NCBI GenBank assembly: GCA_963835515.1
Contig: CAWIFX010000043.1
Location: 118,261 to 182,260 of the forward strand
Direction of reading: 5' to 3'
Length of the DNA stretch: 64,000 bases
DNA from: an uncultured Acidimicrobiia bacterium
Lineage (GTDB): Bacteria; Actinomycetota; Acidimicrobiia; Spongiisociales; JAENVV01
Positions 3,000 through 59,461 of this stretch are shown one piece after another (within the stretch, counting starts at the first letter, position 1; each line of letters starts with the position of its first letter). Below the pieces are notes generated by a model that did not search any database, was not told the DNA's origin, and was given only the letters and a program-made list of their open reading frames with translations. Made by a program: the position numbers and the translations under genes.

Positions 3000-4190
3000 T
3001 TATCCGGTATCGAGGAATTCGATGCGGCCGAGTGGTTGGCCGTTGGCTCGATAGAACCTAGGTTCGTGGCCGGTACCCCGCAATGTGAACTTGCCTGCGT
3101 GGATGAGTGAGTGGTGGTGACGACAAAGCAGGATCATGTTGCTGGTCGAGGTTGGCCCGCCTTCCCACCAGGGGATGATGTGGTGAGCATCGCACCATTG
3201 TGGGGGACGATCACAGCCGGGGAAGGCGCACTGCCGGTCCCGGGCGATCATCGCGTCGCGCATTGGCTTCGTGACCAGGCGGAGTCTGCGACCGACGTCG
3301 ATGATTTCTGACTTCGGACCGAACACGATCCGCCGGAAGTCGGCGTCGCAGGCCAGTCGATCTACGGTGTACTTCTCGAGCACGTCCCGTCCGATCTCGG
3401 CCAGGCTTGGATAGTTGTCGCGCAGCGTTTCGGCGCTCACATGAATGAGCATCGTTGGGGTGGCGGGCCGTTCGCCGTCAGACACCACTAGATCGAACAG
3501 GGCAGTGGCTCGACGTTGTGATGGCGTGGATGGTTCGCCTTCGGTTGGAGCGGGAGTAGCAGCCTTGATCGCTTCGATGAGTTGAGCGCCCCGTTCGGAG
3601 TCGAGAAGGCCATCGAGTTTGACCATGTCCTCGAAGGTTCTTGAAACGTAGAGGTAGGAGGCGTTTCGCTGGTCGTCCAGTGTCGGATAGGACGGCAACG
3701 GAGCCGCAGCTTGCTGCCAGTAGGCAGTGGCTTTTCGGAGATCGGCCACCCATTCCAGCGTTTCCGCGATGTTGCACAGTTCCTTTTCGTCGGAGGCGAA
3801 TTGGTCGGGAGCGGATTGTTTGGCAGAGATGAGCGTCCGCACTTGATCGCTGCTCAGCCGACCCAGCTCGGCGAGCTGGCGGGTTCGTGGCATCTCTTGC
3901 AGGGCTCGCACCTCGGCAACTTGTCGCGTTGCCCGGCCACCCGTGGTTCGGAACCGGTGCTTCAGGTAAGCCGTCGTCGAGGTATATCCGTCGGTCTTGT
4001 ACGACTGTCGTTCGTCAACGACGGCGAGGCGACGCTGCGCCTGCGCATGAAAGAGGTCTCCAAGCATTCGGAGATGTTCGTAGCTCGACGTGAGCTCATT
4101 GTTGTTGAAGTCAACGACTACTTCATCCTCGGCCCAGGCCAGGGCCGTGACGGCGACGGCAAGCACGTCATCGTTTGTGTCCTGGATCAA
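3000..4190 (-). CDS. DUF222 + HNH endonuclease domain protein (mycobacterial '13E12 repeat' type)
   Basis: C-terminal HNH motif …CAFPGCDRPPQWCDAHHIIPWWEGGPTSTSNMILLCRHHHSLIH…. The N-terminal DUF222-like region is typical of actinobacterial HNH proteins. Confidence 0.8.
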   Translation of the reverse strand: MIQDTNDDVLAVAVTALAWAEDEVVVDFNNNELTSSYEHLRMLGDLFHAQAQRRLAVVDERQSYKTDGYTSTTAYLKHRFRTTGGRATRQVAEVRALQEMPRTRQLAELGRLSSDQVRTLISAKQSAPDQFASDEKELCNIAETLEWVADLRKATAYWQQAAAPLPSYPTLDDQRNASYLYVSRTFEDMVKLDGLLDSERGAQLIEAIKAATPAPTEGEPSTPSQRRATALFDLVVSDGERPATPTMLIHVSAETLRDNYPSLAEIGRDVLEKYTVDRLACDADFRRIVFGPKSEIIDVGRRLRLVTKPMRDAMIARDRQCAFPGCDRPPQWCDAHHIIPWWEGGPTSTSNMILLCRHHHSLIHAGKFTLRGTGHEPRFYRANGQPLGRIEFLDTG

Positions 4191-20164: not shown

Positions 20165-20878
20165 GTGATGGGAGCGGCCCATCTCATTCAATCGATCGCG
20201 GTCCTGTTCCTCGCCAACGACTTCTCGCTTCCGGTGGTCGGCTCCTTCCTGTCCGGCCCGCCTGGATCGGGGGATTTCGAGGTTGTCAACCTGTTTGATG
20301 TGCGAGTGGCCTACGGGGTTGCTGGCTTCCTGTGGCTTTCGGCAGCTGCCCATTTCCTCGTGGCGTCGCCGGGTATCAACGATTGGTACAACCGGAATTT
20401 GGCACAACGTCGCAATTACGCTCGATGGATCGAATACTCGATCAGCTCATCGTTGATGGTCGTGCTGATCGCCATGCTCACTGGTATCGCCGAAGTGTCG
20501 GCACTTGTAGTCATCTTTGGCGTGAACGCGTCGATGATTCTCTTCGGATGGCTCATGGAAAAGTATGAGCAGCCCGGCTCGACCAACTGGCTCTCATATT
20601 GGTTCGGAGTTATTGCTGGCCTGTTTCCCTGGCTGGCTATCGGCATCTATCTCTGGACACCTGGGTCGGAGTCGTCACCTCCAGGGTTCGTCTATGCGAT
20701 CTTTGTCTCGCTCTTCGTGTTCTTCAACACGTTTGCGGTGAACATGGTGCTCCAGTACCGCCAGACCGGCAAGTGGCGTGACTACATCTACGGGGAGCGC
20801 GCCTACATCTGGTTGAGCCTGCTCGCTAAGTCAGCCCTCGCCTGGCAGGTATTCGGAGGAACCCTCGCCACCGGGTAG
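20165..20878 (+). CDS. Heliorhodopsin (7-TM retinal-binding protein with inverted topology)
   Basis: 237 aa with 7 TM helices. Matches hallmark heliorhodopsin blocks recalled from HeR 48C12: RW(I/V)EYS(I/L)SSS with the counterion Glu, FGVNASMILFGW, GERAYI(W/V)LSL(L/V)AKSALAWQ(V/I)F with the Schiff-base Lys in TM7, and (P)GFVY(A/G)I. Confidence 0.8.
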   Translation: MMGAAHLIQSIAVLFLANDFSLPVVGSFLSGPPGSGDFEVVNLFDVRVAYGVAGFLWLSAAAHFLVASPGINDWYNRNLAQRRNYARWIEYSISSSLMVVLIAMLTGIAEVSALVVIFGVNASMILFGWLMEKYEQPGSTNWLSYWFGVIAGLFPWLAIGIYLWTPGSESSPPGFVYAIFVSLFVFFNTFAVNMVLQYRQTGKWRDYIYGERAYIWLSLLAKSALAWQVFGGTLATG

Positions 20879-21966: not shown

Positions 21967-22302
21967 TTGACACATCTAACGATTGAACAAAGTGAATCGA
22001 ACGGCAAGTGTGTCCTGACTACCGTCGGAGAGATTGACCTGGCCTCAGCGCCAGATCTGGAAAGTCGGCTCAGCCAGTGCTTGGGTGACGGACCGGTGGT
22101 AGTCGACCTGTCAGCGGTTTCCTTTATCGATTCGACCGGGCTGCGCGTACTCCTGGCTGCTCACTCGGGGGCCGGTGATGGCGGTAACGAGCTCGGACTC
22201 GTCGTGACCGACGGTCCCGTCACCAAACTCTTGTCGATAACGGGTGTTGATGGACACCTGAATATCTTCCGATCGGTGGATGCCGCCAGTTCTGATGCGT
22301 AA
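21967..22302 (+). CDS. STAS-domain anti-sigma-factor antagonist (RsbV/SpoIIAA-like)
   Basis: …VDLSAVSFIDSTGLRVLL… is the STAS signature with the phosphorylatable Ser in DST. TTG start preceded by AAGGGGAGG RBS. Confidence 0.75.
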   Translation: MTHLTIEQSESNGKCVLTTVGEIDLASAPDLESRLSQCLGDGPVVVDLSAVSFIDSTGLRVLLAAHSGAGDGGNELGLVVTDGPVTKLLSITGVDGHLNIFRSVDAASSDA

Positions 22303-22684
22303 TCAGCCTGACGGTCCCTTTAAGCTGATAATCCCAAGCAGCGCGGATCACGTCGCCACGGCTCGCTTGTTCATCGCCAGTCTGGGAAGGACGCTCGGAC
22401 TGCATGCCGAGGTGATCGATGATCTGCGGTTGGCTGTCTCGGAAGCCGTAACTGCCGCGATTCTTTCCGCCCGGTCATCCGAAGTCACCATCAGTGGGAC
22501 GATCGGCCCCGAAGGCGTCTCGGTGCGAGTTGGGCCGCTCTCTGACAATGGTGCCGCAGGCGAACCCGCCCCAACCGATCAGCCCTCCCTCGATCTCGGA
22601 TCGATCGTTCGGGCGCTTTTTCACAACGCTGCGTTTGAAGGAGATACGTTGGTTATTGCCGTCTCGTGGCGACCGCCCACATGA
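22295..22684 (+). CDS. Anti-sigma regulatory factor, RsbW-like (degenerate ATPase motifs)
   Basis: Overlaps the STAS stop (ATGCGTAA) and the sigma start (ATGA). …DDLRLAVSEAVTAAIL… is an N-box-like region lacking Asn/His. Confidence 0.5.
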   Translation: MRNQPDGPFKLIIPSSADHVATARLFIASLGRTLGLHAEVIDDLRLAVSEAVTAAILSARSSEVTISGTIGPEGVSVRVGPLSDNGAAGEPAPTDQPSLDLGSIVRALFHNAAFEGDTLVIAVSWRPPT

Positions 22685-23409
22685 CCGGTTCGGTCGAACA
22701 CGAGAACTGGTTCGACCGGCGCGACGATCCTGACGTCAGGCGTCAGATCGTTGAACGGTACGACGCGCTCGCCATTGGACTGGCCCAACGATTCCGGGGG
22801 AGGGGCGAGGCGACCGATGACCTGGTTCAGGTTGCTCGATACGGTCTCCTGAAGACTATCGATCGGTTCGACGTATCGGTCGGTGTGCAGTTCTCGACGT
22901 TTGCGACGAAGTCGATTCTCGGCGAGCTCAAACGCCACCTTCGAGACAAGGCTTGGTCGGTCCGGGTTCCGCGGTCGCTGCAAGAGACTTACTTGCGAAC
23001 CGGTCGAACCGTCGAAGAGTTGACCCAGAAACTAGGTCGCTCGCCGACGATTGCCGAGATTGCCGAGGAGCTGGAGATAACGGCTGAAGAAGTCCTCGAC
23101 GCCATGGATGCCGGCTCGGCCTTCACGGCAGCTTCGCTCGACCTGCCGGTCGGCGACGATGACGGTGGCTCAACGCTCGGCGACCTGTTGCCGTTCGAAG
23201 ACGAGATCCTTGGTCGATCAGACGAACGGGCCACGGTGTCGGAACACTTGAAGGCGCTTCCGGAGCGGGAACGGCAAATCATCTATCTCAGGTTCTTCGA
23301 AGCCAAGTCGCAGCGGGAGGTCGCCGACGAACTCGGCATATCTCAGATGCATGTTTCCCGACTCTTGAGGAAAGCTCTGTCGGACCTTCGGGTAGCCATC
23401 GACGCTTAA
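22681..23409 (+). CDS. Group 3 sigma-70 factor, SigB/SigF/SigG family
   Basis: Regions 2.x (…DLVQVARYGLLKTIDRFD…), 3 and 4 (…QREVADELGISQMHVSRLLRKAL…). Last gene of the STAS-RsbW-sigma operon. Confidence 0.85.
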   Translation: MTGSVEHENWFDRRDDPDVRRQIVERYDALAIGLAQRFRGRGEATDDLVQVARYGLLKTIDRFDVSVGVQFSTFATKSILGELKRHLRDKAWSVRVPRSLQETYLRTGRTVEELTQKLGRSPTIAEIAEELEITAEEVLDAMDAGSAFTAASLDLPVGDDDGGSTLGDLLPFEDEILGRSDERATVSEHLKALPERERQIIYLRFFEAKSQREVADELGISQMHVSRLLRKALSDLRVAIDA

Positions 23410-23443: not shown

Positions 23444-23461
23444 TTCTACTTTGTTGGTTGG

Positions 23462-26374: not shown

Positions 26375-26385
26375 AGAGGCCTCCC

Positions 26386-26886
26386 ATGTTTTCATTAAGC
26401 CCGGTTCCCCCCGGCGACCTAACCCAAGCCCGAATCGAGGGCCTTGCCGAAGATGCAGTACCCGGAGACGTGGCGGTCGAACTCGAGCATTGGGATGTCA
26501 AAGGCTGGTTCATCGATGTCACATTCGGCGTGCTGGCCGTTGTAGCCGGCGTGGCCGGTCTGGTCCTCCCGTTTCTGCCGGGATGGGCTCCGATCATCGG
26601 AGGAGTCGTGCTTTTGGCAGGCCGCATTCCGCCGCTCCGCCGCTTGCTGAGCCGCTTCATCATGCTCTCGCCGTGTCAGGGATTCCTCGATCGGTTGGCC
26701 CGGAATCCGAAACTGAGAAAGGTGATGGCCAAGGCACTCCTCCGCAAGAAAGTTCGCAGCGCCGTTGAGCCGAATGCCCGGCGTGAAATGGTAAATATCC
26801 TGGTCCGCAACGACGCCGAGAAGGCGGGGACCGGAGAAACGAATGCAAACACCGATCAAGCCTACGGCGGGGATAAGATGGTCTAA
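26386..26886 (+). CDS. PGPGW-type small membrane protein
   Basis: Two TM helices with the LPFLPGW motif and a basic C-terminus. Confidence 0.45.
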   Translation: MFSLSPVPPGDLTQARIEGLAEDAVPGDVAVELEHWDVKGWFIDVTFGVLAVVAGVAGLVLPFLPGWAPIIGGVVLLAGRIPPLRRLLSRFIMLSPCQGFLDRLARNPKLRKVMAKALLRKKVRSAVEPNARREMVNILVRNDAEKAGTGETNANTDQAYGGDKMV

Positions 26887-27836
26887 TGGATTGGTATCTG
26901 GACGACGGCGACAGCGAAGGCGCCACGGTCATCCGTCGCGAATTCGTCGATTATCTTCGCCGGCATGCCGACCCGTCCTCCGAGATTGATCTCGCCGCTC
27001 TGGCTTTCGCTGAGCTGGTCAACAACGGAGTGGAACACGCCGGAGGCCCGGTTTGGGTCTCGGTCGACTGGGCAGGTCGTCATCCGATCGTCTCAGTCAA
27101 TGATCTCGGGTCTTCCTTCCAGATGAGCGAGGTTGCAATGCCTGACCCAACCGCGGTCAGGGGACGAGGTCTAGCCATCGCCGCTGATCTGGCCGCCAGG
27201 CTCGAGGTGGCTCAAAAAGCCGGCGGCGGTGCCCGGGTTGAGGCCGAACTCAACGTTGATCGAGGTGACCAGCAGGATCTGGATCCGCCGCGCCGCACCC
27301 GCAACGTGCTCCCTGATTTAGCCGAAGCCGGTCCGGACGGTTTCGGCAGAGAGTCCTTCCTTCGGTCACTGGTGGTCCAAATGGCACAGGGGGTCGAACA
27401 CGCTCTCGGACCCATGGCGGCGGAGTCGGCGGTTGCCCAGGTGGGCGCCGATGTGGGTGGCCAGATGGAGACCGAGTTTCGATCGAGTCACCCCGGGCTT
27501 CGTGAGCTCATGACCCCCACCGAGACTGGCGACTGCTATGTGCGGCTCAAGCAAGCCATCGGTGGTGATTTCTACGTGCTGGAGGCCGACGAGGATCGAA
27601 TCGTTTTGGCCAATCGGGCGTGTCCGTTCGGTGAGGCAGTCCTGCGAGCTCCTGCGCTATGCCGGATGACTTCGAGTGTTTTCGGGGGAATCGCGGCTCG
27701 CAATTTTGGTGAGGCGACCGTGGTGCTTGAGGAGCGGATCGCGGTTGGCGACCCGGCGTGCCGCGTCGTTGTCTACCTCGGCGAGCAACCCGAGATTCCG
27801 CACGGGCATCGCTACCAGGCGCCAGTCCGTACCTAA
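26886..27836 (+). CDS. RsbW-type GHKL ATPase (anti-sigma regulatory factor-like) fused to a C-terminal V4R (4-vinyl-reductase-type small-molecule-binding) domain
   Basis: Intact N-box ELVNNGVEHAGG and a G-box-like region in the N-terminus. The C-terminus (…ANRACPFGEAVLRAPALCRMTSSVFGGIAARNFGEATVVLEERIAVGDPACRVVV…) fits the V4R Cys pattern. Confidence 0.6.
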   Translation: MDWYLDDGDSEGATVIRREFVDYLRRHADPSSEIDLAALAFAELVNNGVEHAGGPVWVSVDWAGRHPIVSVNDLGSSFQMSEVAMPDPTAVRGRGLAIAADLAARLEVAQKAGGGARVEAELNVDRGDQQDLDPPRRTRNVLPDLAEAGPDGFGRESFLRSLVVQMAQGVEHALGPMAAESAVAQVGADVGGQMETEFRSSHPGLRELMTPTETGDCYVRLKQAIGGDFYVLEADEDRIVLANRACPFGEAVLRAPALCRMTSSVFGGIAARNFGEATVVLEERIAVGDPACRVVVYLGEQPEIPHGHRYQAPVRT

Positions 27837-28798
27837 GCCAAGTAGTCTTCGGCGCCTTCCCTCACCGTCGCGTCGACGATCGCCGGACCATCTCCAACGA
27901 CGGCTAGAACAGCTCGCACCAATGATGATGCTGTCGGACTCCCGGCTGCCTCGGATCGGCGCTGTTGCCAGTCTGCCTGGTCGCGGAGAATGGCAGGCTC
28001 GTCGCACAGCAACGCGGCATTGAGGCATCGCAGCATCCAGACACCATCGAGAACCGCCTCGGTGGGCAGGTTCTTGATGGTGTCAGATAGCCGGGCTGCC
28101 AGCCTGTGGATCCGCAGGTCGAGCCATTCAAACCCTTCGGAGCGCTCGTGCGTGACGGGACCGACTGGAGCGGCCGGAACCTTCACAGATTCGATGGCTC
28201 GGCCGAGGTCCCGGATGTCGCGGCCGTATGCGTTGGCTCCCAGCAGTAGGGCGCGTTCGGCGGTCACGGCCGACCCGCCCATCACCACGGGCGTTCCCGA
28301 TTCGCGGGCAGTTGCCGCCATGCGACGAGCGCCAGGCAGGTTGCCGACCATCTGGCAGGACACGGTTATGCATCGGGGTGCCAGCTCGTGCAGAAAGGGG
28401 AGGAGCTGGCCGGGTGGGATCGGACCGTCCAGCGTGACAGTCTCAAAGCCTTGTGAACGGAGAGCTTGGGAAACCATTGAGAGACCCAACGTATGCCACT
28501 CGCCCTCGGCGCTCGTGACGAGAACCTCGCCAGGGGCGGTGGACTCCCGATCCACGTCGAGTAAACCGATCGTCTGCGACGTTATCGCCGTTGCACGATG
28601 CTCCTGGGCAACATTCCAGACGCCGCTTTCCCATTGAGACCCAACCCAATGTTGGGCCGGCGCAAGTAGCAGATCCATCAGCTCCGGTATCGCCATCCCG
28701 CCGGCGAGGGTCTGGTCGACCTGCGCCTTGAATGCCCGTGCGTCGAATCGGTTGAGCGCGTCGATGAGGTCGGTGCGGATGGCTTCGACAGCCGTCAT
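27833..28798 (-). CDS. Stand-alone cobalamin (B12)-binding domain protein, CarH/LitR C-terminal-module-like (no DNA-binding domain)
   Basis: N-terminal four-helix B12-binding-2 cap (…WVGSQWESGVWNVAQEHRATAI…) and a Rossmann B12-binding domain with an E-x-H-x-x-G variant of the DxHxxG motif (EGEWHTLGL). Overlaps the upstream PP2C gene stop by 4 nt. Confidence 0.65.
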   Translation of the reverse strand: MTAVEAIRTDLIDALNRFDARAFKAQVDQTLAGGMAIPELMDLLLAPAQHWVGSQWESGVWNVAQEHRATAITSQTIGLLDVDRESTAPGEVLVTSAEGEWHTLGLSMVSQALRSQGFETVTLDGPIPPGQLLPFLHELAPRCITVSCQMVGNLPGARRMAATARESGTPVVMGGSAVTAERALLLGANAYGRDIRDLGRAIESVKVPAAPVGPVTHERSEGFEWLDLRIHRLAARLSDTIKNLPTEAVLDGVWMLRCLNAALLCDEPAILRDQADWQQRRSEAAGSPTASSLVRAVLAVVGDGPAIVDATVREGAEDYLA

Positions 28799-30459
28799 AA
28801 AGCTGTGATCGCCAGAACGGTGATGTCGTCTTGGGACTTGCCGGCCGACCAGCCGTCAACTGCTGAAGCAATGGCATTCGAGATGGCCTTCGCTCCTGAG
28901 GCCGCCGCTGCGGAAGCGGTCTCGGCCAACCGATCCCGGCCGAACTCCTCTACGCCAAGACGGGCTTCGATGACCCCATCTGAGAACAGAAGCAGGGTAT
29001 CGCCGGGTGACAGTACGCCAGTGGTCGGGATCCACTCGGCGTCATCCATGAAGCCGAGTAGGACGCCGTGTGCATCGATGTCGCGTGTGGTGCCATTCGC
29101 GCAGATCACCATGGGGGCCGGGTGGCCGGCGGATGAGACCGAGTAGCGATGAGTGCCATCAGGGTCGGTGTCGATCTGGGCCAATACCAAGCTCGCGAAC
29201 GGGCGATTGTCCTGGGAACGGAGCATCTGGTTGATCGTACGGATAGTCGTGTCGGGGCAGCTACCGGCCAATGAGGCTGCTTTGACGGCCGAACGCATGA
29301 GTCCGGCCTGGGCAGCCGCGACAATGCCCTTCCCGGTCATATCGCCGATGGCCGCTATCGACCTGGTCGGGGACAGGGCGAAACAATCGTAGAAATCGCC
29401 TCCGAGAAGGGAAAGGTTCGTGGCGGCCTGGTAACGGGCAGAGGTCTCGAAAGATATGGGGGCCTCGAGAATGGTGGGTCGCACGGACGACACCAGTAAA
29501 TTCGTTACCGAAGCCTGTTCTTGAAAGAGCGCTGCATTGTCCAGGGCCACGGCCGCCCGGCGGGTGATGGCCGTGATCAGGGCGAGGGCCCGATCCGACC
29601 AAACTCCATCGTCACGTTCGACGAGGACGCTGCCGATTCTGACGCCTCGAGCCGCGATCGGGACGACCGTTCCGGATGCACTTGGGGATCTCGCCGGGTG
29701 GGGGGTCATCTCGGTGAGTTCGTCGTAGCCGACCTTACCCGATGCGTGGGCCAGTCGGTGCTCGGTAAGTTCCTTGAGCCTGCCCAGGGTCACGAGACGA
29801 CCCTGGTTGTTCGAGACGGCGGTCGCCACCTGTCCAGACAGAGCATCGGTTTGAAGATCGACCGTGCATCGATCCGCCAGGCTGGGTGCGATCAAGCCAG
29901 CCAAACGGTCAAGAATCCGGTCGACATTCAGTGCTCCCGAGAAGCTATCGCTGGCTTCGATGAGAAGAGCCAGATCCTGTTCGGTGGCGGTACGGGCGGC
30001 GTCGGCTGCCCGCTCGGCGATGCGCAGGCGGTCCCGTTCCAGTTCGACAGAGCTGCGTTCCGTGACGTCGTACACGACCCCGTAACCCGCCACGGGGACA
30101 CCATCCTCGACCTCGATGTGGCCTTGACCCTCGACCCACCTCACCACCCCCGACGGGTGGATGATGCGATGCTTGGTCGTGTAGTCCCCTCCGCGTTCGG
30201 CGAGACCCGCAACCAGTCCCGTGACGTCCTCGAGGTCATCGGGATGGATGAGCGCCGAGTATTCCTCGAATGTCCCGGCAAATCCGGTGTCCGTCACCCC
30301 GTAAATGCGCCGGGTGGTTTCGTCCCAGTTCACCTTGCCGGAGGCTGGGTTCCAACTCCACGTTCCGATGCCTGCAGCCGAGAGCAGGGCAGCCAGGTCG
30401 GGTGGTAGACGATTTGAAGGTGGCACGACAAGATCATAGGCGTTAGGCGGAGAGCCCAT
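28795..30459 (-). CDS. PAS-GAF-PP2C (SpoIIE/RsbU/RsbP-like) serine phosphatase
   Basis: N-terminal PAS (…WSWNPASGKVNWDETTRRIYG…), central GAF, and C-terminal PP2C metal-binding blocks (…GGDFYDCF…IGDMTGKG…FSDGVIEA…DDITVLAI…). Confidence 0.8.
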   Translation of the reverse strand: MGSPPNAYDLVVPPSNRLPPDLAALLSAAGIGTWSWNPASGKVNWDETTRRIYGVTDTGFAGTFEEYSALIHPDDLEDVTGLVAGLAERGGDYTTKHRIIHPSGVVRWVEGQGHIEVEDGVPVAGYGVVYDVTERSSVELERDRLRIAERAADAARTATEQDLALLIEASDSFSGALNVDRILDRLAGLIAPSLADRCTVDLQTDALSGQVATAVSNNQGRLVTLGRLKELTEHRLAHASGKVGYDELTEMTPHPARSPSASGTVVPIAARGVRIGSVLVERDDGVWSDRALALITAITRRAAVALDNAALFQEQASVTNLLVSSVRPTILEAPISFETSARYQAATNLSLLGGDFYDCFALSPTRSIAAIGDMTGKGIVAAAQAGLMRSAVKAASLAGSCPDTTIRTINQMLRSQDNRPFASLVLAQIDTDPDGTHRYSVSSAGHPAPMVICANGTTRDIDAHGVLLGFMDDAEWIPTTGVLSPGDTLLLFSDGVIEARLGVEEFGRDRLAETASAAAASGAKAISNAIASAVDGWSAGKSQDDITVLAITAL

Positions 30460-31752: not shown

Positions 31753-31943
31753 GCCACGACGCCAATTTCAAACCGGGATTCTTCAAGCGGATACGACAGA
31801 TATCGACGCTGTGGAGGCGCGGCGGCCATTTCGTCGACGAGTTCGCCGGTTTCCTGACCCAGATCCTCGACGCGTTCGGACCGGCCGGCTGGCTCTCCTC
31901 TCACCATTACTTTGGCTAGCTATTTTGGACGGCGGGCGAAGGC

Positions 31944-45100: not shown

Positions 45101-46351
45101 TCAGGGCTGAGCATCATTCTTTCGGAGGACCGTAACGATGTCATGGCTCCCGTGCCCCCGTAGGTCGATGCGGGTGGGCTCTGATAGGAGGTAGTCGCTG
45201 TTCAGTTCGGTTGCGGTTTCGATGGATATCCGCACTTCCCCGGCTGCGCCGGTTGACTCGATCCTGCTCGCGACGTTGACGGTGTCCCCCCACAAGTCGT
45301 ACGAGAACTTCCTTTTGCCAATCACACCTGCCACGACCTCGCCCGAATGTATGCCGATGCGGATCGTCCAGGGGAGGTCGTTGACCTGGGCGAATCGGGT
45401 GGTCGCCGCCTGCATCTCAAATGCCAGACCCACGATCACGGCCGCGTGGTCGCTGCGACGCGTGGGGACACCTGCCGCGACCATATAGCCATCTCCGATG
45501 GTCTTGATTTTCTCGACCCCTGCTTGATCGACGAGATCGTCGAACTCGGAGAAGAGTCCGTTGAGCAGATCGACAACCGTGCTGGCATCTGATGCTGCGG
45601 TGAATGCCGTGAAGCCAACGAGGTCGGCGAACAGGACGGTGACGTCTGTGAAACGCTCTGCCACCGCTTCGCCAGAGTTTTTGAGGCGTTCAGCGATCTC
45701 ATCCGGCAAGACGTTGCGCAGGAGTGCATCGGAGCGGTGTTGCTCGGCCTGTAGTGCCGCCTCGGCGAGAAAGACGCTGCGGTACGCCTTGTCAACCAAG
45801 ATCCAGCAGCCGATCGCGAACGCCGCAGCGATTAACAACCACCAGAGCATGTTGTTGACGACTGCTGCGTCAACTCCGGCCGCCTTCATCGCGCCCCAAG
45901 GAATCGATGCGCCGAGGACAACATCGATGACGGCCTGGCGGAGCCGAACCGCCACCACCGGGATCCACACAAACAGTAATAACAACGAGGGGGCGGCGAG
46001 TTCGAAAACTTCCAGGCGATAATAGGTAACCGGCAGTCCGACCGCGATCGAAGCAAATCCCAACACTTCGAGCACTGTGAAGTATTTCACTGCCTTGGTG
46101 TACGTAAGCGCCCAAGCGAGGAGAAAGCCGACGACTATGGCCAGCCTGATTGGCGTTGCCAACGCGGCTTTTTCGGGAGCGACCTGGTAGTCCCAGATGA
46201 TGAAGAGGGGGATGGAAGGTATGGCGATAAGGGCGGCGGCCCGCGCCGTCCGGATGCCGCGTTCCAGGGCACGTTCTTGATAGGCAGCCTCGATTTCACT
46301 GCTGAATGCAAGCGTCGGGAACTTGATCCGACCCTCCAAATTGTGGGTCAT
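45101..46351 (-). CDS. Membrane-anchored class III adenylate/guanylate cyclase
   Basis: Six N-terminal TM helices, then the CHD domain (…VTVLFADLVGFTAF…KTIGDGYMVAAG…IGIHSGEVVAGVIGKRKFSYDLWGDTVNVASR…). Confidence 0.8.
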   Translation of the reverse strand: MTHNLEGRIKFPTLAFSSEIEAAYQERALERGIRTARAAALIAIPSIPLFIIWDYQVAPEKAALATPIRLAIVVGFLLAWALTYTKAVKYFTVLEVLGFASIAVGLPVTYYRLEVFELAAPSLLLLFVWIPVVAVRLRQAVIDVVLGASIPWGAMKAAGVDAAVVNNMLWWLLIAAAFAIGCWILVDKAYRSVFLAEAALQAEQHRSDALLRNVLPDEIAERLKNSGEAVAERFTDVTVLFADLVGFTAFTAASDASTVVDLLNGLFSEFDDLVDQAGVEKIKTIGDGYMVAAGVPTRRSDHAAVIVGLAFEMQAATTRFAQVNDLPWTIRIGIHSGEVVAGVIGKRKFSYDLWGDTVNVASRIESTGAAGEVRISIETATELNSDYLLSEPTRIDLRGHGSHDIVTVLRKNDAQP

Positions 46352-49847: not shown

Positions 49848-50855
49848 GTGCAGGTGGCCCGTCTTCGCTTGTTTGCCAATCTGAGAGAACTAGCCGGCAC
49901 CGGCAGCGTCGACATCGACGCTGCCACGGTCGGCGACCTGCTGACCCAGGCCGGTTCTTCCTACGGACCGTCTTTTGTGGCGGCGCTGGACACGGCCAAA
50001 GTCTGGGTGAACGGTGAACCGGCCACTCCGGAACTGGCTGTGTCTCCCGGCGACGAAGTGGCCGTAATCCCTCCGGTATCCGGGGGAGCAGCCACCTTGA
50101 TGGACAATCCCAACATCTCCATCTTCGGAGTCCTTGGCTCGGCGGTTCTGTTGTCAGTGACGAACGCCTATTTGTCAGCCGAGTGGTTCGCCGCCTCTCT
50201 GGTGCTCGTTCTGAGTCTCTGGGCGGTGGACATTGTCCGTGAAACGAATACCGGCGGAATGGCCATGCAGCTGCCTCCGGTCCTCATTGGCATCATGGCC
50301 GGGGTCGCGTTTGTTGCGGCTTCGCCGGGTGACAATCGAGGTTTCGCAGCGTTCGGACTGGTCCTGGTGGTCTCGCTCATTGTGTCCCTGGTGTGGTCAG
50401 TGGCGGTCGAAGAGGCCCGTCACCTGTCGGCGGTAGCAAGCACCACCGTCATCACAACCATGGCAAGTTTGGCGGCGGCCTCACTGATGGCCGCTCGCTT
50501 GGTCGGGGGAGCAACGGTCACCGGCGTGTTCCTCATCCAGGTCATCGTGGCCGGCATTGCCACGGTGATCGCCTTCCGGGTGGCGATCCTCGATCCGAGC
50601 ATTGTCGGGTCGCTAGGAGCGATCATTGCCGGCGTTGTTGCGGCGATGTTGTGGGACTTGCCCGTCGTCGAGTTCGTGTTGGTAGGGGTGGCTGTGGCGC
50701 TCGCCCTGCTGGCAGGGAAAGGCTTCGGCGGTCTTTGTCGGACTGGGGAGCCATACGTTCTTGACCGACCGCCGGGCGTGCTCGGAGACCTCGATGGGGC
50801 CGTATTGGCGGCCGGTCTGCTCTTGCCAGTTTTCTATCTCGTCACCGCAGCCTGA
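49848..50855 (+). CDS. MoaD/ThiS-like beta-grasp domain ending in Gly-Gly, fused to a ~250-aa polytopic membrane domain
   Basis: The first ~80 aa (MQVARLRLFANLRELAGTGSVDID…VWVNGEPATPELAVSPGDEVAVIPPVSGG) match sulfur-carrier proteins including the terminal GG. The rest has 7-8 TM helices. Confidence 0.5.
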   Translation: MQVARLRLFANLRELAGTGSVDIDAATVGDLLTQAGSSYGPSFVAALDTAKVWVNGEPATPELAVSPGDEVAVIPPVSGGAATLMDNPNISIFGVLGSAVLLSVTNAYLSAEWFAASLVLVLSLWAVDIVRETNTGGMAMQLPPVLIGIMAGVAFVAASPGDNRGFAAFGLVLVVSLIVSLVWSVAVEEARHLSAVASTTVITTMASLAAASLMAARLVGGATVTGVFLIQVIVAGIATVIAFRVAILDPSIVGSLGAIIAGVVAAMLWDLPVVEFVLVGVAVALALLAGKGFGGLCRTGEPYVLDRPPGVLGDLDGAVLAAGLLLPVFYLVTAA

Positions 50856-51276: not shown

Positions 51277-52398
51277 GTGGCGCCAGGCGGGTTTACGCTA
51301 TCGGGTGTGCGAACCCCCACCTCAGTTTTCCTTGTGGTCGCGCTGGTGCTCGGGCTGATTGCCTGGGACCCTTCGCCGGCCATATCAGTTGACCGTCAGG
51401 CGGTCGATCAAGCTTGTGCTGCGTCCAAGCAGGCACTGTCGGTCGTCGAAGATGGAGCGGCTCGCCTTGACGAAGCCGTGCGACGCTACGTGGAAATCAA
51501 TATCCAGTTGGAGGAGCAGTCACTCGAGACCTTTGGGCTCCGGGCCGAGGCGGATGAGAAGGCCGAGGTGGTTTCCGGTCTTCGGTCTGTGGTGAACGAG
51601 CAGGCGGTCGGTTTGTACATGTCGGGCTCGGCGACCCAAGGGTCATCTTTGCTCGCGTCAAAATCTCTTACGGACTTCCTTACCGGTCGCCAGATGCTGT
51701 CGGGCCTTAGCGAGCGCACCTTCGATGCGGCTGTCGAACTTGAGAGTCAGATTCAGGACCTGTTGGCGCTGAACGAAGAACTCCAGGCGCACAATGAGGA
51801 ACTCGATGATCTGCGCGACGAGTTGGAGCAGTTGGCGCTAGAGACCAACCAGGCGCTCCAGGCTGCCCAGATGGCCTACTTCGATTTGGACACCGAATGT
51901 GCCCGCCTCTACAACGAGTACCAGGCTGAACTTCGGCGCATCGAGGCCGAACGAGTGGCCAACGCCACCGGGGGCTTGCCGCTCGAAGCGACGCCTGGAT
52001 TTGCCTGCCCGGTCAATCAGCCCTTTTCGTTCATCAACGATTGGGGATTCTCGAGGGATGGGGGAAGGCGGTCGCACAAAGGTACTGACGTCTTCACGCC
52101 GTATGGTCAGGAACAATACGCCGTGGCCAACGGAACTATCGAACTGTTGTCCGGCGGTTTGGGCGGCACGGCCATCTGGTTGGTCTCCGATTATGGCGTT
52201 CGGTTCTATTACGCTCACATGAGTGGTTATGCGCCGGGACTAACGAACGGTCAAGTCGTAGCCATCGGCGATCTTGTGGGATACACCGGGAACTCCGGGA
52301 ACGCCCGCACGACACCGCCACATCTTCATTTTGGAATACGAGCGTCGACGGGACAGTGGGTTAACCCCTATCCTACGTTGGCACGAACTTGCGGATAA
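51277..52398 (+). CDS. M23-family peptidoglycan metalloendopeptidase with N-terminal coiled coil (EnvC-like architecture)
   Basis: Signal/TM, a long coiled coil, and a C-terminal M23 domain with HKGTD…HLHFG zinc ligands. The 5' end overlaps crcB on the opposite strand, so the real start is probably downstream of 51383. Confidence 0.7.
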   Translation: MAPGGFTLSGVRTPTSVFLVVALVLGLIAWDPSPAISVDRQAVDQACAASKQALSVVEDGAARLDEAVRRYVEINIQLEEQSLETFGLRAEADEKAEVVSGLRSVVNEQAVGLYMSGSATQGSSLLASKSLTDFLTGRQMLSGLSERTFDAAVELESQIQDLLALNEELQAHNEELDDLRDELEQLALETNQALQAAQMAYFDLDTECARLYNEYQAELRRIEAERVANATGGLPLEATPGFACPVNQPFSFINDWGFSRDGGRRSHKGTDVFTPYGQEQYAVANGTIELLSGGLGGTAIWLVSDYGVRFYYAHMSGYAPGLTNGQVVAIGDLVGYTGNSGNARTTPPHLHFGIRASTGQWVNPYPTLARTCG

Positions 52399-52407
52399 GG
52401 AGCATTT

Positions 52408-52932
52408 GTGAGCGAGAAACGACGTCGAATCGATCAGATTCTTGACCCGGCCTATACGGAAAACCTGCCCGGTCTCGATCTGGGCGAGCTGCGCGCTCGG
52501 CGTCAGGTTGCGGCCGATGTCGAAAGCGAGCTTTCCTATTACCGTCGGATGCTGCATGGGCGGATGGACTTGCTCAACTTCGAGTTGGCCCGCCGCCGCG
52601 GCGACGAAAAACGATCCTTGATCGAGGCATTACCGGAAATCCTCGCCGCCGGGGAGCGAGCGGGAGGTCAGACCGGCCGGGTCCGCGGCGAGTTTGATCT
52701 GGCGCTTGCGGGCGATGGCAACCGTCCGATAGATGCCGTACTCCAGGATGACTTTCTCACCCACGTGTATGACCTTGAGGTCTCAGAACTCGAAGATATC
52801 CTCACGGCGCTCACGGAGTCAGAACGGGAAGTGTCCGAGACCCGTCGAGCGATTCAAGCTGTCTTTGACGAGGTGCAACAAGTCATCTCCAACCGGTATC
52901 GGGAGACAGTTGTTGGCGAACTCTCCGATTGA
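52408..52932 (+). CDS. RsiG-like putative c-di-GMP-binding anti-sigma factor
   Basis: Two helical repeats carry ESELSYYRRMLHGRMD (E-x3-S-x2-R-x3-H-x3-D) and EREVSETRRAIQAVFD (E-x3-S-x2-R-x3-Q-x3-D). The latter is an exact match to the RsiG c-di-GMP motif. Confidence 0.5.
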   Translation: MSEKRRRIDQILDPAYTENLPGLDLGELRARRQVAADVESELSYYRRMLHGRMDLLNFELARRRGDEKRSLIEALPEILAAGERAGGQTGRVRGEFDLALAGDGNRPIDAVLQDDFLTHVYDLEVSELEDILTALTESEREVSETRRAIQAVFDEVQQVISNRYRETVVGELSD

Positions 52933-53870
52933 GCCTTCTCGGCAACGTTATCCGCAACGGCGTTGTTGAGGCGGAGCATCACGGCGCCATAGCGGTCGTT
53001 GACCCGGACGGAAATCTGGTCGCTTCGATGGGTGATATTGATCGCTTGTTTTATGGTCGCTCGTCGCTGAAACCTTTTCAGGCCCGAGCGTCTCTCGACC
53101 TTGGGGCCTCAGTCAGTGGACCTGCGCTCGCTGTTGCTTGCGCCAGCCACGGCGGGTTGCCGATCCATGTTGCGTATGTGCGCCAGATCCTCGAGAAGGT
53201 TGGCCTCAGTGAAGCTGCCCTTCAGACTCCACCTGCCTGGCCCATGGCCGAGGACGAGGCCAGGCGACGAGTCGCCGCCGGGATGGACGAGCCGCGGCCG
53301 ATCTGGCACGGTTGCTCGGGTAAGCATGCCGCCATGCTGCAGGCCTGCGTCGCGTCCGGTTTTCCGGTCGAGACGTATGTGCAACCTGACCACCCGCTGC
53401 AGGCGCACATGCGGACGCGGATGGCTGAGGCATTGGGTCATCCCATGTCAGGACCGGCTGTCGATGGGTGCGGTGCCCCGGTTTACGAGGTGTCGGTACG
53501 CTCGATGGCAACCGGGTTCGCGCAACTGGGCACGCATCACGAATACGACGAGATTTGGACGGCGATGCATCGATATCCAGGCCTCGTCGGCGAGAATCCT
53601 CGGATTGATCAACTGGCGGCCACGATGACCGAGGCGGCCGCCAAAGTGGGCGCCGAGGGGGTCATCGGGATAGCGGTCCGATCCCGGTTCGGCATAGCCG
53701 TCAAATCGTGGGATGGTTCTACAAGAGGCATCGAAGCAGGCGTAGTCGGGACCATGGAACAACTTGGCTTGTTGAATGGTTTATCACGTCGTCTGTTGCG
53801 AGACCGCCTCGCAGTCTTTGGAGGCGGTTCGGTGCAAGGTCATATTGAGCCAACCGTGGAACTTGTGTGA
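52929..53870 (+). CDS. Asparaginase II-family (Rhizobium-type L-asparaginase) protein
   Basis: …GNVIRNGVVEAEHHGAIAVVD… and …IWHGCSGKHAAMLQAC… are characteristic of this family. Confidence 0.7.
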   Translation: MSLLGNVIRNGVVEAEHHGAIAVVDPDGNLVASMGDIDRLFYGRSSLKPFQARASLDLGASVSGPALAVACASHGGLPIHVAYVRQILEKVGLSEAALQTPPAWPMAEDEARRRVAAGMDEPRPIWHGCSGKHAAMLQACVASGFPVETYVQPDHPLQAHMRTRMAEALGHPMSGPAVDGCGAPVYEVSVRSMATGFAQLGTHHEYDEIWTAMHRYPGLVGENPRIDQLAATMTEAAAKVGAEGVIGIAVRSRFGIAVKSWDGSTRGIEAGVVGTMEQLGLLNGLSRRLLRDRLAVFGGGSVQGHIEPTVELV

Positions 53871-54771
53871 ACGAATTCGACAATCCCCACTTTGCTTTGC
53901 CGCCCGTGGCTGCCGGCCTCGGGCCGTTTCCTCATGGAGCCTATCTCGACACGCTTTGGAAGCACACCGCGACCGAACAGGACGAACTGTGGATCGTTGG
54001 CGACGACCGGGGCGTAGTTCCCTTCATGGTTCATGGACAGGTGATCCGGTTTATCGGCGACGCAGATCTTGTGGACTATCGAAGTCCCCTCGGGGAAGGA
54101 ACTGCCGATCTCATTACGAGCGCGGTGTCTGGCTGTCCATCAGGAATGCGCATCGTGGCCGATTCGCTCCCACGAGCCGCAGCTGACGTCGTAGCCAAGG
54201 GTCTTGAGTCGGCCGGTTTACGCATGTCGGTTGGTGACCACACCGTGGCCGCCGTTCTGCAACTCCCGAACGACTTTGAAGAGTACCTTTCGGCGATCGG
54301 CAAGAAGGAACGGCACGAAACCAGACGGAAGCGTCGACGCTACGAGGCGGCTCTCGGCGAGGTTCGGTTTGTTCATGCGCCCACCGATGGACACCTCTTC
54401 GATCAATTCGTGGCCCTGCACCGGTTGTCGCCCGGAGACAAAGGTTCCTTTATGTCGGACGATATGGAGTCCTACTTCCGGGCGCTGTTGTCGCTTGACG
54501 GATGGGGCATCGACGCTTTGGTCGATGAAGACAACCGAATGGTTGCCGGGGGATTCGCGTTCCAGAATGATAGAGGCTATTTCCTGTACAACAGCGCCTA
54601 CGACCCTGTGCACTCGGAGGTATCGCCCGGCGTAGTGTTGATCGCGGGCCTCATCGAACTCGCGATAGAGAGGGGGCGCGTGTCTTCGACTTCCTCAAGG
54701 GCGATGAGAGCTACAAGTTCCGTTTGGGGGCCGAGCCCCGCCAGCTCTACGTCGTGACGGCCAAGACATGA
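53867..54771 (+). CDS. GNAT acetyltransferase (FemAB/CelD-like, Acetyltransf_6 type), frameshifted at a G5 homopolymer (~54671-54675)
   Basis: In-frame up to …LIELAIERG. The +1 frame then gives the expected C-terminus …GARVFDFLKGDESYKFRLGAEPRQLYVVTAKT*, ending at 54771. Confidence 0.55.
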
Positions 54772-55988
54772 TCAAGCAACTCGCCTATTTGAGCCTGCAT
54801 ACCTCCCCACTCATTCAGCCTGGTGGCGGCGATGCCGGCGGCATGAACGTTTACATCGACGAGTTGGCGCGGACGATGGCTGATCGGGGGATCAACGTCG
54901 ACGTCTTCACTCGCAAGACCCAACCCGACCAACCTCAAGTCGTCATCGTCAACGAGCACTACCGCGTCATTCACATCACGGCAGGACCGGTATACGACCT
55001 ACCGATCGCTCAGCTGACCGAGCATGTTTTCGACTTCGCGGAGTCGGTCTGCGAGTGGGCGCAATCGACTGATACCCGGTACGACATCGTTCACTCGCAC
55101 TACTGGCTGTCCGGCTGGGCAGGGCTGATGGTCAAACGGATCCTCGGGATTCCACTGGCGAACTCGTTCCACACGCTTGCCCGAGTCAAGGACGCCACCC
55201 GTCGCCCGGATGAGCCGCCGAGCGCGCTGGTGCGGATTGCCGCCGAACACGACGTCATCGCTGGTTCCGATTGTGTCATCTCATCTACCCAGGCTGAATA
55301 CGACGATCTGTTGTTGCACTACGGCGCCGACCCGACTCGTTTGTGTACCTCGCCGCCCGGAGTTGATCACGACCTGTTTCGGCCGGCCGATCAGCTAGCC
55401 GCCCGGCAGGCTCTGGGAATCGCTCCCGGGATCCCGCTTCTCTTATTTGTGGGCCGCATTCAGGCGTTGAAAGGTGTAGACGTCGCCCTCGACGCCTTTG
55501 AGAAGGTGCAGGCCGGCCTTCCGGAGGCCCAGATGCTCATTGTGGGCGGGCCGAGCGGGCCCGGCGGGACTGATGAGGTCGCCGCGCTCCGCATGAGTGT
55601 CGAAGCACGCGGATTGTCCGATGCCGTCCGGTTCTATGACCCGGTACCTCACGGCGAGCTGGCAGTTTTCTATCAGGCGGCCGATGTTTTAGTCGTCCCA
55701 TCACGTTCCGAGTCGTTTGGTTTGGTCGCAGCCGAAGCCCAGGCCTGCGGCACCCCGGTGGTTGCCGCACGGGTGGGCGGACTCCAGTACGTAATCTCGC
55801 ACCGGCAGTCCGGCCTTCTGATTGACGGTTGGGAGTCAGCTGATTACGCCGACGCACTGACCCGTATTCTGGGCGACGCGGCATACCGGAACCGTCTGTC
55901 GCGCGGTGCGATCACCTTCTCCGAGCAGTTCTCTTGGGCGACGACTGCCAATCGGCTCCTTGAGTTGTATGCCGGCATCACAGGCTGA
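54768..55988 (+). CDS. mshA: D-inositol-3-phosphate glycosyltransferase (mycothiol biosynthesis, GT4)
   Basis: MshA-specific N-terminus SLHTSPLIQPGGGDAGGMNVYI and a GT4 C-terminal E-x7-E region (…VVPSRSESFGLVAAEAQACGTPVVAARVGGL…). Confidence 0.8.
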   Translation: MIKQLAYLSLHTSPLIQPGGGDAGGMNVYIDELARTMADRGINVDVFTRKTQPDQPQVVIVNEHYRVIHITAGPVYDLPIAQLTEHVFDFAESVCEWAQSTDTRYDIVHSHYWLSGWAGLMVKRILGIPLANSFHTLARVKDATRRPDEPPSALVRIAAEHDVIAGSDCVISSTQAEYDDLLLHYGADPTRLCTSPPGVDHDLFRPADQLAARQALGIAPGIPLLLFVGRIQALKGVDVALDAFEKVQAGLPEAQMLIVGGPSGPGGTDEVAALRMSVEARGLSDAVRFYDPVPHGELAVFYQAADVLVVPSRSESFGLVAAEAQACGTPVVAARVGGLQYVISHRQSGLLIDGWESADYADALTRILGDAAYRNRLSRGAITFSEQFSWATTANRLLELYAGITG

Positions 55989-56734: not shown

Positions 56735-57310
56735 TCAGGGCTCGAGGCCGACCCCCAACGTGGCGGCCACTCCGGCGTCGATCATGAGATCAAACGAGGC
56801 AGCGGCCGGCACGTACCCGCCCAGCGTCTCCATGAATAGCACGGTCACGTAGATGCGCCCGTTGCTGTCGACTTCCGAAGCGATTCCTACCCGGTCATAG
56901 TCGCCCATGATGTTGGCCCGATGGGTCGGCGAGGCCATGAAAGCCTTGTGGAGCTTTTCGATGTTTGGCCCGTAGCCGACGTTTTCGCCGATCGTCTGCC
57001 AGCCAGTCGTGAACTTTGTCAGGTCCGACGAGTGATAGATATCTCCACGGGCCAGCATTTCGGACGTGTGGATTGCTGCGTCGTCGACGAGGTCGTCGTA
57101 GGGGACCAGTTCGTTGAGACCCGCCGCGACACGCTCTGCGTTGAGCAGGGCCACGAACTCAAGATCCATGGACGGGTTCGCCGAGGACTGTGCCGCCATC
57201 GCCGGGGTGAAGGGAGCGATGGTATTGGCGCCCGATGGTGCCGCCGCAACCGAAGAGACGATGCTGCCCGCGATCGCAACCGTGAGGGCAAAGATGAAGG
57301 CCAGGCGCAT
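56735..57310 (-). CDS. Secreted CAP/SCP/PR-1 (YkwD-like) domain protein
   Basis: Signal peptide. CAP motifs …LNAERVAAGLNELV… and HRANIMGDYDRVGI. Confidence 0.75.
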   Translation of the reverse strand: MRLAFIFALTVAIAGSIVSSVAAAPSGANTIAPFTPAMAAQSSANPSMDLEFVALLNAERVAAGLNELVPYDDLVDDAAIHTSEMLARGDIYHSSDLTKFTTGWQTIGENVGYGPNIEKLHKAFMASPTHRANIMGDYDRVGIASEVDSNGRIYVTVLFMETLGGYVPAAASFDLMIDAGVAATLGVGLEP

Positions 57311-57368
57311 ACCTTGTCTATCGGCAAAACGGCCTCAAATGTTGAGGTGGCCGGGAAGATTTGTCGCG

Positions 57369-58253
57369 TTACAGCGCCAACCCGAACATCAGTTCACGCA
57401 GGTTGACCGGTTTGGTCTCGAAGGAGTTGAGGTCGACTCGCATGGAGCCGAGTCGCAAACCTTGCATGCCTTCGCCGTGGTTCGTCAAAACCCTCAGCAC
57501 CCCGTCGGTGTAGTCCAGTACGCCGAGACCCAGACAGGCGCCCACCCCGTCCTGGACCCCCACGACCATGCCTGCCAGGCGGTCCAGGTCAAGCCCGGTG
57601 GGAAGGGTCGGCGCAAAAACGGTCGGCCTGATTCTCCAGGCCTCCAGCGGATCGGCCAACGCTTGTTTCAGCTGGCGCACCCGGCCCTCCGAGCGGACAT
57701 CGGGTGATAGGGGAATCAGCTCGGGATGAACGTCGGCTGTTATGACGTCCACCGAAAAGAACCTTTGGAGCATTCCGATGATTGGCTCGAGTTCGGCGCC
57801 GCGTTGCAGGCCAACTACCAGCTCGGGACGGCACGTCTCGACCTTGTGATATTTCAGCGTCTGACCGACCACGCCGGATACCGCGCCAGTCGTATCGATG
57901 AGCACCAGGTCGGCTTCGGCGCGTGCCTGCTCGACAAGCGCGGCTGTAGCTAGAACCATCTGCAGGACCAGGCGTGACGGATTCGTGCTCCCGACGAAGC
58001 GCAACGCATCGGCTTCGGAAATGTTGGTCAGGTCGTCGCTGGTTCTGATCCACTTGAGTCCGACACACCCCGGCGGTCCGACGGTCGATTGGGCGACATC
58101 GGCATCCACCAATGCCGCGGCTTTCCCTTTGGCGATGCTTTGACGGAGAATCTCGCGCGCCAGGGTGGACTTTCCGGTGTCGGGCGCCCCAATAAGCATC
58201 ACGACTCCGCCCTGGTTGGCGATGGTCGCCGCAAGTTGTGTGTGATCGGTCAC
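57369..58253 (-). CDS. Clp1/Grc3-family P-loop polynucleotide-kinase-like protein
   Basis: Walker A VMLIGAPDTGKST, a 'lid' DADVAQSTVGPPG (D-x-D-x-x-Q), and a Walker B-like LVLIDTTG. This is the arrangement of the Clp1_P domain. Confidence 0.5.
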   Translation of the reverse strand: MTDHTQLAATIANQGGVVMLIGAPDTGKSTLAREILRQSIAKGKAAALVDADVAQSTVGPPGCVGLKWIRTSDDLTNISEADALRFVGSTNPSRLVLQMVLATAALVEQARAEADLVLIDTTGAVSGVVGQTLKYHKVETCRPELVVGLQRGAELEPIIGMLQRFFSVDVITADVHPELIPLSPDVRSEGRVRQLKQALADPLEAWRIRPTVFAPTLPTGLDLDRLAGMVVGVQDGVGACLGLGVLDYTDGVLRVLTNHGEGMQGLRLGSMRVDLNSFETKPVNLRELMFGLAL

Positions 58254-58406
58254 GGGCGGAATGGTAACGGCCGGCCGGGGTAGCGGGATCGCTCGTTAAC
58301 ATGGTTACCCATGAGACCTGCCACAACTTTCGTCATCATCGCCCTGCTGGCTGTTCTCGCCATTGCCGGAACCATTCAGATCATCCAGCTGAACTCGCCA
58401 TAGAGC

Positions 58407-59213: not shown

Positions 59214-59461
59214 TTAAGAAAAAAACTCCACAAAGTTCTCAAGGTGTACTGATCGGTGACCGATACTAGGGGGGTACGGGAGCGCTTCGGCGGTTCCGTA
59301 GGAGACAACTGAAGCACTACGGAAACCCTTGGGCACGTTCAAAAAACCCAAGGTGTATCGGAAGCCTCCCAGCCCGCCCCAGTGGTGTGGAAGTTGATTC
59401 CAAGAAAATGCCGGACCCCTCGGGGTCCGGCATTTTGTTTGGCAGGGTTCTTAGAAGGGTG

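Follow-up and report, generated by a model that had tools for sequence, protein, structure and literature searches.

The gene that we discuss here lies at positions 52408..52932 (+) of a 64 kb stretch of DNA from an uncultured bacterium of the class Acidimicrobiia, and we refer to the whole of this stretch as the window. The open reading frame (ORF) can be read from the sequence as running from a GTG start to a TGA stop, and encodes a protein of 174 aa. A Shine-Dalgarno sequence, AAGGAG, can be read at 52397..52402 (+), 5 nt 5' of the GTG and overlapping the TAA stop of the preceding gene. By its sequence the ORF is a typical RsiG orthologue, ordinary for the family, and we have named it rsiG. 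The product is a twin-motif RsiG-family protein and is predicted to be an anti-sigma factor dependent on cyclic diguanylate (c-di-GMP). The original prediction, made from the sequence, placed the gene between those for an M23 peptidase and an asparaginase-family protein, and Pfam indeed gives Peptidase_M23 upstream and Asparaginase_II downstream.

Assignment to the RsiG family is supported by four independent lines, namely Pfam, alignment with PDB sequences, an AlphaFold2 (AF2) model searched with Foldseek, and conservation of the motifs. The Pfam profile for RsiG, PF22802, scores 81.7 bits, where the gathering cut-off is 27, with E=3e-23, and it matches the product in two stretches, one for each helix. 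In a PDB sequence search the Streptomyces venezuelae RsiG chain 6pfj_T, which was deposited under the name 'AmfC protein', aligns with residues 15-167 (E=1.6e-10), and the single-motif RsiGs 7lq2, 7lq3 and 7lq4 align with the N-terminal helix (residues 16-66/95, E ~1e-3). BLASTP of the two halves of the protein against each other gave no match, and the internal repeat is visible solely through the Pfam profile and the register of the motifs.

Two motifs of the form E(x)3S(x)2R(x)3(Q/H)(x)3D had been claimed for this protein, and both can be read in rsiG, complete and at the predicted spacing. The first predicted c-di-GMP-binding motif, in helix alpha1, is at 52522..52569 (+), sequence ESELSYYRRMLHGRMD, with the residues E39-x3-S43-x2-R46-x3-H50-x3-D54. 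The second, in the C-terminal helix, is at 52822..52869 (+), sequence EREVSETRRAIQAVFD, with E139-x3-S143-x2-R146-x3-Q150-x3-D154. When all six frames of the 64 kb are translated there are exactly two instances of E...S..R...[QH]...D, which are both in rsiG and 100 residues apart, and amino-acid shuffles gave a mean of 0.18 occurrences per window with a maximum of 2. An alignment of 42 homologues shows no variation at S43, R46, H50, D54, E139, S143 and R146 and at least 90% conservation of D154, and the core motif residues stay invariant in homologues down to ~47% identity. Comparison of rsiG with its close relatives gave a ratio of non-synonymous to synonymous substitution rates (dN/dS) of 0.02-0.035. 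As the motif pair is beyond chance and dN/dS is so low, rsiG is a functional coding gene under purifying selection.

For a wider survey of the motifs 88 RsiGs, with both motifs conserved, were extracted from related loci, and the counts are given over 86 Acidimicrobiia homologues. Motif 2 is ESR[Q/Y/H/F][D/E] across the 86. The His in place of Gln in motif 1, to which the original prediction had drawn attention, is present in our protein as H50. However it is not unusual, as motif 1 is [E/D]SRHD in 81/86 of the Acidimicrobiia RsiGs, and the published account of the family states that the Gln of motif 1 'is frequently replaced by a histidine', which is able to make the same stacking contact (PMC8325347). 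We also observed that in motif 1 of the Acidimicrobiia proteins, where this His is nearly universal, the first Glu is often Asp, and that 44 of the 86 have Tyr, His or Phe as the motif 2 stacking residue, for which Streptomyces and the window have Gln.

The AF2 model, built from the 42 homologues, has a mean predicted local distance difference test score (pLDDT) of 77.9, with block means of 84-96 over two long helices at residues 25-64 and 125-173. A two-helix hairpin was to be expected if the protein is an RsiG. When the model was compared with PDB using Foldseek, the only hits with E <0.01 were the four RsiG chains of 6PFV/6PFJ, with template modelling (TM) scores of 0.61-0.75, 32% identity and a probability of 1.00; the next hit had E=0.74. 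The two long helices of the model and the best matches, all of them RsiG, support a fold like that of 6PFJ/6PFV, with the two helices predicted to pair antiparallel as a coiled coil.

Relatives of RsiG are encoded by 335 GTDB species representatives, and a large protein database holds 1084 homologues; among the matches listed PF22802 is carried by 120/120. Near-identical RsiGs (96-99% identity) are encoded on the metagenome-assembled genome (MAG) contigs JAGXFS01, CAWKAG01, JAOUMT01 and CBDTUI01. Most of the best 80 loci bear the title of an Acidimicrobiia or Actinomycetota MAG, a few being labelled otherwise or as unclassified, and the few homologues that were named in the source, again from Acidimicrobiia or Actinomycetota MAGs, are called 'aerial mycelium formation protein' or 'hypothetical protein'. 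The family, the twin-motif architecture, the His variant and the occurrence in Acidimicrobiales are already published. The 2021 PNAS study (PMC8325347) describes 130 twin-motif RsiGs and reports the twin-motif form in 3 of 4 species of Acidimicrobiales, and Acidithrix ferrooxidans AXFE_25810, Ferrithrix thermotolerans and Ilumatobacter coccineus YM304_37910 are in its supplementary table. The modest value of our protein is comparative, in that uncultured Acidimicrobiia widely carry twin-motif RsiGs whose motif 1 has His and whose motif 2 has Q/Y/H/F at the stacking position, and our additions are confined to the conservation of the operon and a candidate target of WhiG, both described below.

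The M23 gene is at 51277..52398 (+), with a probable start at GTG 51307 as judged by alignment of orthologues. Its product is a membrane-anchored coiled-coil metallopeptidase, EnvC/PcsB-like, with the layout membrane anchor, coiled coil of ~180 residues and C-terminal catalytic domain. The M23 stop is 9 nt before the rsiG start, and the two genes are probably co-transcribed. The Asparaginase_II gene, at 52929..53870 (+), matches PF06089 with E=2e-83 and has a TTG start that overlaps the rsiG stop (TTGA). The overlap of rsiG stop and asparaginase start, together with the 9 nt between M23 stop and rsiG, suggests a single transcript for M23, rsiG and asparaginase. Pfam and synteny identify the two genes that follow as an Acetyltransf_6 GNAT gene (53867..54757, +) and a gene for an MshA-like GT4 glycosyltransferase (54768..55988, +). 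Upstream of the M23 gene, at 49848-50855 (+), is a gene for a 335-aa fusion of a polytopic membrane region with a ThiS/MoaD-like ubiquitin-fold domain.

We surveyed this neighbourhood in 87 related Acidimicrobiia loci (L001-L087) found by tblastn. The M23 gene is directly upstream of rsiG wherever the contig extends that far, Asparaginase_II is directly downstream in almost all of the loci, and nearly all keep the ThiS-like fusion gene, at ~2.2-2.6 kb upstream of rsiG. The conserved string is ThiS-like membrane fusion, (CrcB), M23, rsiG, Asparaginase_II, Acetyltransf_6, GT4/MshA-like and YbjN, and it is present in loci that are 76%, 61% and 53% identical. As a test of ancestry, metagenome contigs were scanned with S. 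venezuelae RsiG, giving 30 twin-motif loci with sufficient downstream sequence, their RsiGs being 37-82% identical to it. In these 30 loci, which are Streptomyces-like or of other twin-motif kinds, Asparaginase_II is found at up to 400 nt from rsiG in 14 and at up to 1.8 kb in a further 8 (22/30), and several of the loci among L126-L166 have MshA/YbjN further downstream of rsiG, or the ThiS-like gene upstream. The S. venezuelae-like locus L124 has nitrobindin, Fur, YgfZ, rsiG and an Eis-like acetyltransferase instead. Since the adjacency is common to Acidimicrobiia and Streptomyces-like loci, the asparaginase neighbour is an old feature of rsiG loci across the phylum, and this supports orthology and vertical inheritance. 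In the case of M23, the only Streptomyces-like locus with such a gene near rsiG is L147, where it is ~2 kb upstream, and on this comparison the M23 neighbour is specific to Acidimicrobiia.

It had also been pointed out that rsiG is not beside a sigma gene. This is true, but there is nothing unusual in it: S. venezuelae rsiG is ~1.5 Mbp from whiG (PMC7005675; Mol Cell, 2020), and as that gene too is unlinked to whiG, the lack of an adjacent sigma gene is normal.

There is a sigma-28/WhiG-type promoter-like site, TCAA-N16-GCCGATAG, at 57318..57345 (-), 4.4 kb downstream of rsiG. It is 7 nt upstream of the ATG of a gene for a secreted CAP/SCP-domain protein at 56735..57310 (-), which has 191 aa, an N-terminal signal peptide and a match to PF00188 of 37.9 bits against a cut-off of 21.1. 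The published consensus for WhiG promoters is T(A/C)AA-N16-GCCGATAA (PMC12871210). Over L001, L005-L012 and L018-L087 its position is about +4.4 to +4.9 kb from rsiG, and of the 30 loci across the class in which the CAP gene is carried, 24 have TCAA-N15-17-GCCGATA(N) in front of the orthologue. The strict motif gave 31 hits in 1.39 Mb, whereas the reversed sequence gave 0 and triplet shuffles averaged 1.15. Conservation of the motif before the CAP gene indicates that a sigma-28-family sigma is probably active in this lineage, and makes the CAP-domain gene a candidate WhiG-dependent gene. A conserved promoter at this position is a concrete candidate for an output of the switch in members of the phylum that do not sporulate and are probably unicellular.

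A similar motif precedes the M23-rsiG operon in 9/86 loci, and is absent from the window. It was observed as TCAAG-N-GCCGATCA, just upstream of the M23 gene, in a sub-clade comprising L035, L049, L056-L058 and L078 (also L054, L066 and L067), and suggests that in these organisms WhiG may direct expression of its own anti-sigma factor. Not all forms of the motif were useful. The loose pattern T[AC]AA-N15/16-GCCGA with 1 mismatch gave 40-61 hits, mostly intragenic, and was uninformative, the stricter GCCGATA form alone being of use. The hit at 4279-4305 (-) is upstream of a clear sigma-70 promoter and a LexA box and is probably due to chance, and those at 18513 and 59239 have no gene in front of them. 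The block downstream of the CAP gene, 57369-62448 (-), is conserved and includes genes for a CLP1_P P-loop protein, an S-adenosylmethionine (SAM) hydroxide adenosyltransferase and subunits of a cbb3-type oxidase (cytochrome c, FixO and COX1).

With regard to the partner sigma, RsiG is reported always to co-occur with a WhiG homologue and to pair with WhiG2 (PMC12871210). Our search for WhiG used S. venezuelae WhiG, verified against 6pfj_A, as query, and proceeded through 50%-identity representatives, cluster look-ups, Acidimicrobiales WhiG and contig look-ups. The representatives and cluster look-ups revealed WhiG2-type sigmas in Acidimicrobiales MAGs. Four of these (P0259, P0436, P0450 and P0457) score 262-275 bits on FliA_WhiG, for which the cut-off is 189.6, and have the WhiG equivalog model as best family with 318-329 bits. 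P0259 retains 8/8 of the S. venezuelae WhiG residues in contact with c-di-GMP or RsiG that were checked, K57, G61, R62, T235, L236, Y239, E240 and L242. These whiG genes keep to a fixed housekeeping context beside rpsB-tsf. The loci of Acidimicrobiales and related MAGs (L088-L123, L194-L198) have the gene order xerC-whiG-rpsB-tsf-pyrH-frr, and those of another lineage (L184-L193) have dprA-whiG-M23-rpsB-tsf, with a small M23 peptidase gene between whiG and rpsB. The partner is thus shown for the class, and for this genome it is a prediction.

We consider the canonical RsiG/c-di-GMP/WhiG2 switch to be the best explanation of these data, and have good confidence in it. RsiG would be a monomeric twin-motif anti-sigma factor, in which the C-terminal helix (~125-173) lies antiparallel against helix alpha1 (~25-64) in a coiled coil and the two motifs jointly clamp a partially intercalated c-di-GMP dimer. 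Loaded with c-di-GMP, it would bind and sequester a sigma-28-family WhiG of the WhiG2 clade, encoded elsewhere in the genome. A drop in c-di-GMP would then release WhiG, which would transcribe from T(A/C)AA-N15-17-GCCGATA promoters, probably including that of the nearby CAP-domain gene. Binding of c-di-GMP, which sigma is the partner, its occurrence in this genome and which way the regulation runs are inferred.

There are several observations that weigh against this explanation. Using tblastn with S. venezuelae WhiG we found no WhiG/FliA gene in the 64 kb of the window, and none closer than 10 kb to rsiG in the 87 related loci. Nine contig look-ups did not place a WhiG2 gene and an RsiG from the window's clade together in any one MAG, and no whole-genome shotgun (WGS) prefix matched the 80 RsiG loci. 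No GGDEF, EAL or HD-GYP domain was found in the window by a crude regular expression and by Pfam scans of the genes at ~19-63 kb, the window being only a small fraction of the genome, so that this negative carries little weight. The rsiG product is not named by any NCBIfam model. In the AF2 model the linker between the helices, residues 84-112, has pLDDT <50 and is modelled as disordered. Finally the sigma-28-type site at 57318-57345 is a consensus match, and as such a candidate promoter. The regular expression for GGDEF, EAL and HD-GYP gave nothing credible in the related loci either, and the sole nucleotide-cyclase gene seen in the window, at 45101..46351 (-), encodes an adenylate/guanylate cyclase of class III that has a MASE8 membrane sensor domain at its N terminus.

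The alternative that survives best, although we think it improbable, is that this is an RsiG-family c-di-GMP receptor rewired to a partner other than WhiG, which could be the co-transcribed M23 protein, so linking c-di-GMP to cell-wall hydrolysis or division, or could be another sigma. It gains from the finding that the adjacency of M23 and rsiG, the 9-nt gap and the Shine-Dalgarno sequence over the M23 stop are kept in essentially all 87 Acidimicrobiia loci, with the adjacency largely missing from the Streptomyces-like loci (L147 only, at ~2 kb), and also from WhiG not having been demonstrated in the window or near rsiG in relatives. However conserved adjacency alone is no proof of interaction, and the sigma-28-type promoter conserved in the rsiG neighbourhood points to a WhiG-like sigma being active in the lineage. 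In addition the class has WhiG2 sigmas that keep the residues for contact with RsiG and c-di-GMP, and in the published surveys RsiG is found only alongside WhiG (PMC12871210).

A second alternative arises from the group-3 sigma encoded at 22681..23409, which the original prediction had mentioned and which could be the sigma bound by RsiG. We found no other ORF of the sigma-70 family in the window using phmmer with this sigma and tblastn with S. venezuelae WhiG, and it does belong to group 3, as does WhiG. However it is of the SigB/F type and not a WhiG: it scores 267 bits on TIGR02980 SigB/SigF/SigG (cut-off 234) and 110.9 bits on FliA_WhiG, well short of 189.6, and its best relatives in PDB are 8x6g_H and the SpoIIAB-bound SigF 1l0o_C, with WhiG ranking far lower. 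Directly upstream of the sigma gene, and overlapping it, is a gene for an RsbW-like HATPase_c_2 anti-sigma factor (22280..22684), and nearby is one for a PAS-SpoIIE PP2C phosphatase (28795..30459), which make up a complete partner-switching module. As this sigma has its own partner-switching apparatus we have rejected it as the partner of RsiG, and the pairing is made still less plausible by the report that RsiG of Geodermatophilus obscurus does not bind even the related WhiG1-clade sigma (PMC12871210). We think this alternative very unlikely indeed.

The same region has some other genes of note. The partner-switching module also holds genes for a HATPase_c_2-MetOD1 protein (26886..27836) and a protein with a B12-binding domain (27833..28798), and close to it is a heliorhodopsin gene at 20165..20878 (PF18761, E=6e-99). 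It may be that the DNA from 20165 to 30459 encodes a light- or B12-linked stress-sigma circuit.

The last alternative, that the ORF is a chance one or encodes a decayed or structural coiled coil without c-di-GMP binding, can draw on the binding being a prediction, on the low confidence of the central third of the AF2 model and on the failure of BLASTP to detect a repeat between the halves, but is hardly credible for a gene with a canonical ribosome-binding site, relatives in 335 GTDB species and dN/dS of 0.02-0.035, whose two motifs are complete, far beyond chance as a pair, and with core residues invariant to ~47% identity.

If we return to the canonical switch, one of the closest known systems is S. 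venezuelae RsiG (Vnz_19430, formerly AmfC; structures 6PFJ and 6PFV). The two proteins are in the same Pfam family and align over nearly their full length, with 32% identity in the structural alignment, and both have the two motifs on long antiparallel helices with a poorly ordered linker, which in our case is predicted. In both cases the gene is unlinked to whiG so far as the surroundings of rsiG in the window go, and the ancestral neighbourhood (Asparaginase_II, MshA, YbjN and ThiS-like) is common to many of the Streptomyces-like loci. There are also differences. The window RsiG is shorter, with 174 aa as against ~224 aa in the S. venezuelae-like orthologue of L124, and has His in motif 1 where S. 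venezuelae has Gln. The Acidimicrobiia rsiG sits with an M23 peptidase gene, with predicted co-transcription, whereas L124 has nitrobindin-Fur-YgfZ-rsiG-Eis-like. The host of the window DNA is almost certainly unicellular and non-sporulating, and for this reason the output of its switch cannot be sporulation.

Comparison with other known RsiGs is also informative. Those of Acidithrix, Ferrithrix and Ilumatobacter (PMC8325347) are from the same class and have the same twin-motif architecture, and like ours each is predicted by sequence only. However the window lineage, unlike the listed species of Acidimicrobiales, is known only as MAGs (JAGXFS01, CAWKAG01 and others). In Rubrobacter radiotolerans, a unicellular actinobacterium as the window host almost certainly is, the switch has an output other than sporulation, namely type IV pili. 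The N-terminal motif helix of the Rubrobacter and Thermoleophilia RsiG (7LQ2-7LQ4) is homologous to that of our protein, but that RsiG has one motif and forms a homodimer, whereas the window RsiG carries the two motifs on a single chain and would be expected to be a monomer. The RsiG-WhiG2 pair of G. obscurus (PMC12871210) is a twin-motif case outside Streptomyces in which the interaction was confirmed by two-hybrid analysis, and it serves as a model for the pairing of sigma clades; its WhiG2 gene is known, whereas that of the window organism is predicted from relatives in the class.

What the canonical switch controls in Acidimicrobiia is a matter on which we can make only a tentative suggestion. 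It is possible, though we would not put it as high as even, that the c-di-GMP-RsiG-WhiG switch has here a new output in cell-envelope or secreted functions, with a feedback loop on its own operon in one sub-clade. The suggestion arises because rsiG is fixed with an EnvC-like M23 gene across the class and there is a WhiG-type promoter at the gene for a secreted CAP protein. If true, it would define the WhiG regulon of abundant uncultured actinobacteria of aquatic and sediment habitats.

Two further features of the window are recorded here. There is a segmental duplication of ~520 nt, with ~80% identity between 31230-31751 and 33874-34397, that takes in the 3' end of one gene, the 5' end of the ORF that follows and the intergenic leader between them, and there is a further repeat pair at 21138-21237 and 31714-31813. 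The ORFs downstream of the duplication are one of 93 aa and one of 1241 aa for a hybrid histidine kinase, the true start of which is probably an ATG near 34284. The 105-nt repeated leader at 31.5 and 34.2 kb was considered as a riboswitch and rejected, as Rfam gave no match and it is part of the ~520-nt segmental duplication, which includes coding sequence. The second feature is a perfect actinobacterial LexA/SOS box, TCGAACATATGTTCGA, at 4205-4220, which follows closely on a TTGACA-N17-CATAAT promoter and precedes the ORF at 3000..4190 (-).

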